DNA from: Escherichia coli | GTDB lineage: Bacteria > Pseudomonadota > Gammaproteobacteria > Enterobacterales > Enterobacteriaceae | Direction: 5' to 3' (one strand) | Assembly: GCF_044647545.1 (NCBI RefSeq) | Contig: NZ_CP172818.1 | DNA: 64,000 nt | Shown here: positions 24,990-25,652 of the stretch, in pieces | How positions within the stretch are numbered: position 1 is the stretch's first letter | How the letters are laid out: each line of letters opens with the position of its first letter | Notes under the pieces: model-generated | What the model saw: the letters and a program-made list of their open reading frames with translations, nothing else | Database searches by the model: none | Told to the model about the DNA's origin: nothing | Translations under genes and position numbers: made by a program

Positions 24990-25652
24990 TCCCCTTCACT
25001 CCCCCTTTTTTTCCTTTTCCTTTCTTATAAAAAAGTCCCACAACTTTCGCAGGAAGCTCGCCCCCCCCCCCTTCAACCCGCACCACCCCAAAACCCAAAC
25101 CCCCCCCGCCTGGGCAAAAAACACCGCCACCATGAAAGGTATAGCATTTTCTAACACCCTCCGGCCCCTTTCTTTTTCCCCCATTTCCCGCACCCTATCA
25201 AAACCCAGAGTTTCCCCCCCCAAAATGAGGCCACCCCTTTCCCGGTAAAAAGGATGTTTCCCTTTTTTTGTTTTCAGCCCCCCCCCTTTTCGCCCCGCCC
25301 CCCCCCCCGCCCCCCCACCGCAAAAAAAAACACACCCCCGCGCCCGCAAACCGCCACCCTGAGACAGGCGACAGCCCCCCCCCAGATGTTATAGGGGAAT
25401 TTCGTGTGTTAAAAAAAAAATTTTAAAATGATGGCCAACGCGGACCGCGCCCCCCCCCTCCCCGGGGAGACCACACCCTCTCCGACAAAAAAACCTTTTT
25501 AAAAAAAAAGGGCGTTGCCCAGAGAGGGAGAAGACGACACAAGACAATAAAAAAAAAAAAATGCCGGGTTTTTTTTTTTTTTTTTTTTCCCCTTTTTTTT
25601 ATGATTTTTTTCCCCCGCGGGGCCCCCCCCCTTCCCCCCGCCCCCCGGGGAG
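24990..25652. other. low-complexity, homopolymer-rich, G-poor tract (likely artefactual or non-native)
   Basis: runs of C up to 11, A up to 13 and T up to 19 nt; no plausible ORF; fills the uvrD-yigE spacer up to the yigE stop codon. Confidence 0.9.

Follow-up and report, generated by a model that had tools for sequence, protein, structure and literature searches.

In at least 2412 of 5426 complete Escherichia coli genomes (at least 44%), an intact accessory gene of the SAM_HAT family (formerly DUF62) lies between uvrD and yigE, so that a long uvrD-yigE "spacer" is simply how the locus looks in that share of E. coli genomes. In the strains IMT16316 and ECONIH1 the intact gene comprises 903 nt on the minus strand, is separated from uvrD by 54 nt and from yigE by 82 nt, and encodes WP_000751631.1. 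This protein matches both domains of the family (PF01887 SAM_HAT_N, E = 2.6e-53; PF20257 SAM_HAT_C, E = 2.1e-18), its N-terminus has the appearance of a signal peptide, and relatives of known structure include 2zbu, the SalL chlorinase 2q6i, PH0463 (2wr8) and the fluorinase 1rqp. K-12 MG1655 is without the SAM_HAT gene, and its uvrD-yigE spacer measures 146 bp, close to the 140 bp or so that a sequence-only reading of the present DNA had given for K-12.

The DNA analysed here is a stretch of 64 kb, referred to as the window, in which the accessory gene is found at the same locus, on the same strand and with the same length, but in a form that can no longer be read. The sequence-only reading had described positions 24990-25652 as a homopolymer-rich, G-poor tract that adjoins the yigE stop codon at 25655 and fills a uvrD-yigE gap of 1026 bp. 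The size of the gap was confirmed: the last base of the uvrD stop is 24628, and the stop codon of yigE begins at 25655. However, the tract does not fill a spacer but overlies the 903-nt SAM_HAT gene together with its 82-bp spacer to yigE, and the damage begins 130 nt before 24990. The abnormal zone extends from 24859 to 25654, with an additional 1-nt deletion of a G at 24715/24716. The locus is composed of the following parts:

22466..24628, plus strand: uvrD (DNA helicase II), intact; the ORF ends at 24628 and the start was placed by comparison with the 2163-nt uvrD of ECONIH1.
24683..24858, minus strand: 3' part of the SAM hydrolase / SAM_HAT gene, rendered correctly; identical to IMT16316 except for one deleted G (24715/24716), which shifts the frame.
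24859..25578, minus strand: remaining ~720 nt of the same gene, garbled (N-terminal domain, apparent signal peptide and start codon); placed by in-register alignment, the end coordinate 25578 being the alignment column of the reference start codon.
25579..25654, unstranded: garbled 82-bp spacer from the SAM_HAT gene start to the yigE stop; placed by alignment, ending in a butt joint and 6 nt short.
25655..26419, minus strand: yigE (phosphodiester glycosidase family, DUF2233), intact ORF; 100% identity and homology to K-12 restart at 25655.

The gene uvrD is 100% identical to that of ST648-type genomes and forms the last stretch of K-12 homology before the gap. Of the 1026 bp of the gap, ~240 nt (24629-24858) are native sequence rendered correctly; they comprise the 54 nt that separate uvrD from the gene and the gene's 3' part. 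When the tract was compared with the 5426 complete E. coli genomes by BLASTN, 2412 were matched, with 68.8% identity over 94% of the tract (E = 5e-53). Each genome contributed a single, chromosomal match, which lay under a gene annotated as a SAM hydrolase / SAM-dependent halogenase family protein, and the position between uvrD and yigE and the minus strand are shared with IMT16316, ECONIH1 and all top matches listed. The extra length of the gap relative to K-12 is thus explained by a known SAM_HAT gene that occupies the site. In comparison with the gene for WP_000751631.1, the 3' 176 nt in the window are identical except for the one deleted base, and the remainder is in register at ~60% identity; the gene cannot be read over its N-terminal 240 codons and its frame is interrupted, which we attribute to sequence error and not to biology. 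A tblastn search of the tract with the true protein returned matches in three frames, with E = 1.7e-77 for the C-terminal part and E = 8.7e-21 and 6.7e-10 for the N-terminal part, for which the residual identity is just 32-34% and is split between frames -1 and -2. The sole readable remnant is a 77-aa ORF (24700..24933, minus strand) that matches PF20257 SAM_HAT_C (E = 1.5e-10; 41.7 bits, the cut-off being 25.5), and none of the ORFs from the tract gave a match to PF01887 SAM_HAT_N that could be read in one frame. Both the accessory gene that lies beneath the tract and its family are known, and nothing new is present; the strain is ST648-like and, as its closest relatives do, almost certainly has this 903-nt gene in intact form, coding for a secreted protein of the SAM hydrolase / SAM hydroxide adenosyltransferase family.

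The start region of this gene also contains homopolymer indels of one base in two other public ST648-like records, L003 (CP121673.1) and L006 (GCA_028598275.1, JAQRHH010000001.1; 3800-3900). The product called is shortened to 198 aa in L003, and no gene is called there in L006, which has the gene in its normal sequence; these indels are probably long-read homopolymer errors.

With regard to composition, the earlier description of the tract largely held. Bases in runs of at least 5 make up 35.7% of the tract; mononucleotide shuffles of the same bases average 3.5% and reach 11.3% at most, and the median for the whole window is 1.7%. Of the 92 homopolymer runs of at least 6 in the 64-kb window, 23 fall within the 663 bases of 24990-25652, and all runs of at least 8 are located there except for two at 11030-11106 and one at 42554. 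The individual runs had been given as C11, A13 and T19; C11 (at 25061-71 and at 25298-308) and A13 (25549-61) are present as stated, and the T run is a T20 (25569-88). The probability that a base equals the previous one is ~0.50-0.57 in the tract, compared to a window mean of 0.26 +/- 0.045. On the plus strand the tract is C-rich and G-poor (A 0.24, C 0.39, G 0.15, T 0.22), and the GC skew drops to -0.65. Tandem Repeats Finder identified no organised repeat, but only mononucleotide runs and chance two-copy units. The ORFs inside the tract, which are Gly- or Pro-rich, are indeed artefacts, as the sequence-only reading had held: none has a Pfam match, and nine of ten candidate products from the gap have no exact counterpart among 15 billion proteins. 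The remaining one is a frameshifted 49-aa remnant of the real SAM hydrolase gene and occurs in NCBI on a single contig of 4,499,902 bp, the probable source of the window and well short of the 4.9-5.4 Mb of the ST648-type records listed.

The structure of the errors was determined from a pairwise alignment of the window with the uvrD-yigE region of IMT16316. Identity is 1.00 from uvrD to 24857, apart from the deleted G, then takes values of 0.80, 0.96, 0.90 and 0.84 in successive 50-nt steps from 24859, stays at ~0.6 (0.54-0.78) up to 25654 after this onset, and is again 1.00 from 25655. The alignment of 24858-25654 is colinear, position by position, and contains 234 substitutions but only 16 gap columns among its 811 columns. 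The tract is 12 nt shorter than the reference, and half of this shortfall is one 6-nt gap at the right edge, i.e., the butt joint. The substitution load therefore amounts to ~29% over ~800 nt, while the flanks show 0 differences over tens of kb from ST648-type genomes. The most frequent changes (reference > window) were G>C and T>C (49 each), followed by A>C (22), G>A (20) and G>T (16), with 146 transversions compared to 88 transitions overall. True bases were retained in the tract at 85% for C, 78% for A, 67% for T and 52% for G. At the onset (24858-25057), G was wrong in 34% of cases, compared to 4-9% for the other bases, and in the middle of the tract G was wrong in 68% and C in 11%. Among the 234 wrong bases, 169 (72%) equal a true neighbour at +/-1 position, compared to 94 +/- 7 (maximum 118) when the wrong calls were permuted. 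The homopolymer runs arise because wrong calls copy neighbouring bases, the probability of a base being the same as the previous one being 0.50 here and 0.285 in the true sequence.

We know of no mutational process that shows a one-sided rise, copying of neighbours and a dead stop at a gene boundary. Low-quality read sequence in a consensus, whether an untrimmed tail or a raw insert allele, shares with the tract the one-sided decay and the neighbour-copy homopolymers, and also the base-specific loss, here of G, and the abrupt return to perfect sequence. The tract belongs to this known class of mis-called consensus sequence. Compared to a textbook read-tail profile, a companion patch at 42436-43750 is different, as it consists of near-pure G deletions over 1.3 kb.

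To place these errors in context, the window was compared with K-12 and with ST648-type genomes. Positions 1-24800 are 100.0% identical to many ST648-type genomes, and the whole window differs from ECONIH1 almost only at three patches and at the junctions of missing islands. The alleles are those of ST648 and not of K-12, to which identity is 96.6-97.9%. At the same time, the window is colinear with K-12 throughout, and every garbled or missing place is a segment absent from K-12; at the present locus, K-12 homology stops at 24628 and restarts exactly at 25655. Dozens of otherwise identical genomes all carry the islands that are absent from the window. For the structure of 26500-42400 (15.9 kb), the best complete genome reached 98.2% at full coverage, and colinear single-piece matches reached only 97.5%. 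Two island-free junctions (221 and 241 nt) found best complete-genome matches of 95.0% and 96.3%, and the junction spacers rhtC-rhtB and metE-ysgA had best matches of 96.6% and 91.8% over 61 nt, with no exact match among the 5426 complete genomes. The deposited sequence hence combines a K-12-like gene order with ST648-type alleles, and DNA that a K-12-like scaffold would lack is missing or badly rendered. Reference-guided (mapping-based) pseudo-assemblies likewise keep the gene order of their reference, and the window is colinear with K-12 despite its ST648 alleles, with missing islands, junctions that match no genome and a probable source contig of only 4.50 Mb. However, a pure mapping consensus would leave insertions out entirely, whereas in the window three are filled partly and badly. 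From this we infer that the record is a reference-scaffolded pseudo-assembly in which scaffold-absent DNA was dropped or poorly filled. In structure the presumed scaffold resembles K-12, but there is no support for K-12 itself in that role, as the junction spacers are different from those of K-12 and of every one of the 5426 complete genomes.

Other damaged or missing places in the window were recorded as well. Positions 10962-11107 hold junk that includes a run of A55 (11030-11084) and takes the place of ~586 nt in the closest genomes, being far shorter than the DNA it replaces; the insertion is correct for ~30 nt at its left edge and 35 nt at its right edge, and the loss includes the 591-nt hypothetical gene ECONIH1_RS22330, which lies downstream of glmZ, between glmZ and hemY. 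The patch at 42436-43750 (1.3 kb) represents the final 1.6 kb of an island of 5.6 kb that lies between udp and rmuC and lacks its first 4 kb here; the island contains a TctABC transporter, a sugar-acid kinase and an aldolase, and an IclR regulator. Here, 224 of 426 plus strand G were deleted, A, C and T were kept at 95-97%, and no gradient was apparent. Retention of G depended on context: it was 22% where A preceded, 58-59% where C or G did, and 81% where A followed. Where udp (41673-42515) meets this patch, its stop codon is gone, resulting in a read-through of ~27 artificial codons. Three islands are missing: ~1.56 kb with DUF943 and YPO3983 genes between corA and yigF (27593-27739), ~1.0 kb with a gene of the Rpn family between rhtC and rhtB (33729-33783), and 8.5 kb with the fdrA/arcC/cytosine permease cluster between metE and ysgA (40552-40612). 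The junction spacers at rhtC-rhtB and metE-ysgA resemble those of K-12; the corA-yigF junction was compared with K-12 and ECONIH1 only.

As judged by these comparisons of sequence, the tract is very probably an assembly or base-calling artefact, a garbled rendering of the SAM hydrolase gene and not a biological feature. Since position-by-position similarity to the true gene persists along the whole length, the tract derives from real signal of the locus. In the proposed course of events, a net insertion of 893 bp relative to a K-12-like scaffold would have been filled in from an anchor on the uvrD side. The sequence is correct for ~230 nt, after which G calls fail first and bases are increasingly replaced by their neighbours, giving rise to homopolymers and an excess of C, until it ends in a butt joint at the yigE stop (25655), exactly where scaffold homology resumes. 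The source of the fill was presumably unpolished data of a single orientation, and candidates are the tail of a dye-terminator read with weak G or an insert allele pasted in from noisy reads. A software step working in scaffold orientation might be responsible, e.g., one that pastes raw insert alleles into the reference, as G is lost on one and the same assembly strand in both this tract and the G-deleted patch. A fill by majority vote, column by column, over noisy long reads stacked from the left anchor was considered and rejected; it would fit the gradient and the copying of neighbours but does not explain the G-first failure or the C excess.

Several other explanations were weighed against this artefact. 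Homology to the gene combined with the loss of an open frame, as seen in the tract, would also be expected of real DNA in which a SAM hydrolase pseudogene has been locally hypermutated or has decayed. However, ~29% substitutions within 800 nt would then stand beside 0 differences over tens of kb of flanking sequence, and the damage climbs from one side and ends abruptly at the scaffold boundary. The wrong bases copy their neighbours in a transversion-rich, strand-asymmetric spectrum, two further garbled patches sit at scaffold-absent segments, and the 2412 gene-carrying genomes include no intermediate; accordingly, we regard such a pseudogene as exceedingly improbable. Practically no weight is given to the related idea that a localised, strand-asymmetric process has rewritten a real SAM hydrolase gene in a single 0.8-kb segment, base to neighbour and G first. 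A genuine low-complexity insertion, a native repeat or an insertion scar in the uvrD-yigE spacer, the last of which the sequence-only reading had left open, might be suggested by a gap of 1026 bp compared to 146 bp in K-12, but this extra length is accounted for by the gene known at the site in at least 44% of the complete genomes. The tract has no repeat unit and aligns position by position to the SAM_HAT gene. It is also not a known native repeat region, as no copy was found in any of the 5426 complete E. coli genomes and the 2412 that match do so at 60-80% identity, without intermediates. Together, these findings leave a genuine insertion or repeat with virtually no credence.

The sequence-only reading had further proposed low-quality base calls or filler, and the two parts of this proposal fared differently. 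Bad base calls are borne out by the structure of the errors. An arbitrary filler or placeholder, bridging the gap and unrelated to the true locus, could be imagined in view of the runs A13 and T20 here and A55 at 11030, which resemble padding, but is contradicted by the similarity to the true gene, which stays in register from end to end (E = 5e-53 by blastn, and 9e-21 by tblastn for the N-terminal part), and is therefore very unlikely for this tract; for the A55 patch at 10962-11107, padding is still a conceivable origin. In a more specific form of the artefact, a single dye-terminator (Sanger) read made for gap closing would have started near the uvrD end, had weak G signals and been joined at yigE with its 3' tail left untrimmed. 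Such a read would account for the one-way decay from the uvrD side, the roughly kept length, the copying of neighbours, the early loss of G and the butt joint on the right. Dye-terminator chemistry shows peak-height patterns with weak "G after A" peaks, to which the G retention of just 22% after A at 42436-43750 may be a parallel. However, that patch, in which plus strand G is lost as well, stands for 1.6 kb without a gradient and is too long for a single read, and the loss of plus strand G in both patches could also reflect a software step in scaffold orientation. In addition, an error of C8>C7 at 6983, in otherwise clean sequence, suggests that the main data type was other than Sanger or Illumina. 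A Sanger read tail is thus a candidate to be taken seriously, but one we lean against as the specific source.

The record is unreliable with respect to gene content, as within 64 kb two accessory genes are garbled, three islands are missing and a fourth is missing in part. Pangenome, pseudogene or gene-loss analyses using this assembly would report false losses, frameshifts and "novel" Gly- or Pro-rich ORFs. The tract is of no biological importance, and the practical use of the finding is to flag or exclude the record.

A few small differences from ECONIH1 were observed elsewhere in the window. These are the C8>C7 change, which lies in a tRNA-Leu gene, GG>AA at 62105-62106, and a 3-nt deletion at 53808 (GATCTATG > GATCG). 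In CorA, the sequence SSDGMNF replaces SSYGMNF (27614-27619), beside the conserved GMN motif, and this allele is also that of a partial corA duplicate in ECONIH1. The change was dropped as evidence of a collapsed repeat, as the same full-length protein occurs in three metagenome contigs from other lineages; the allele could be natural, derived from the scaffold or the result of a collapsed repeat.
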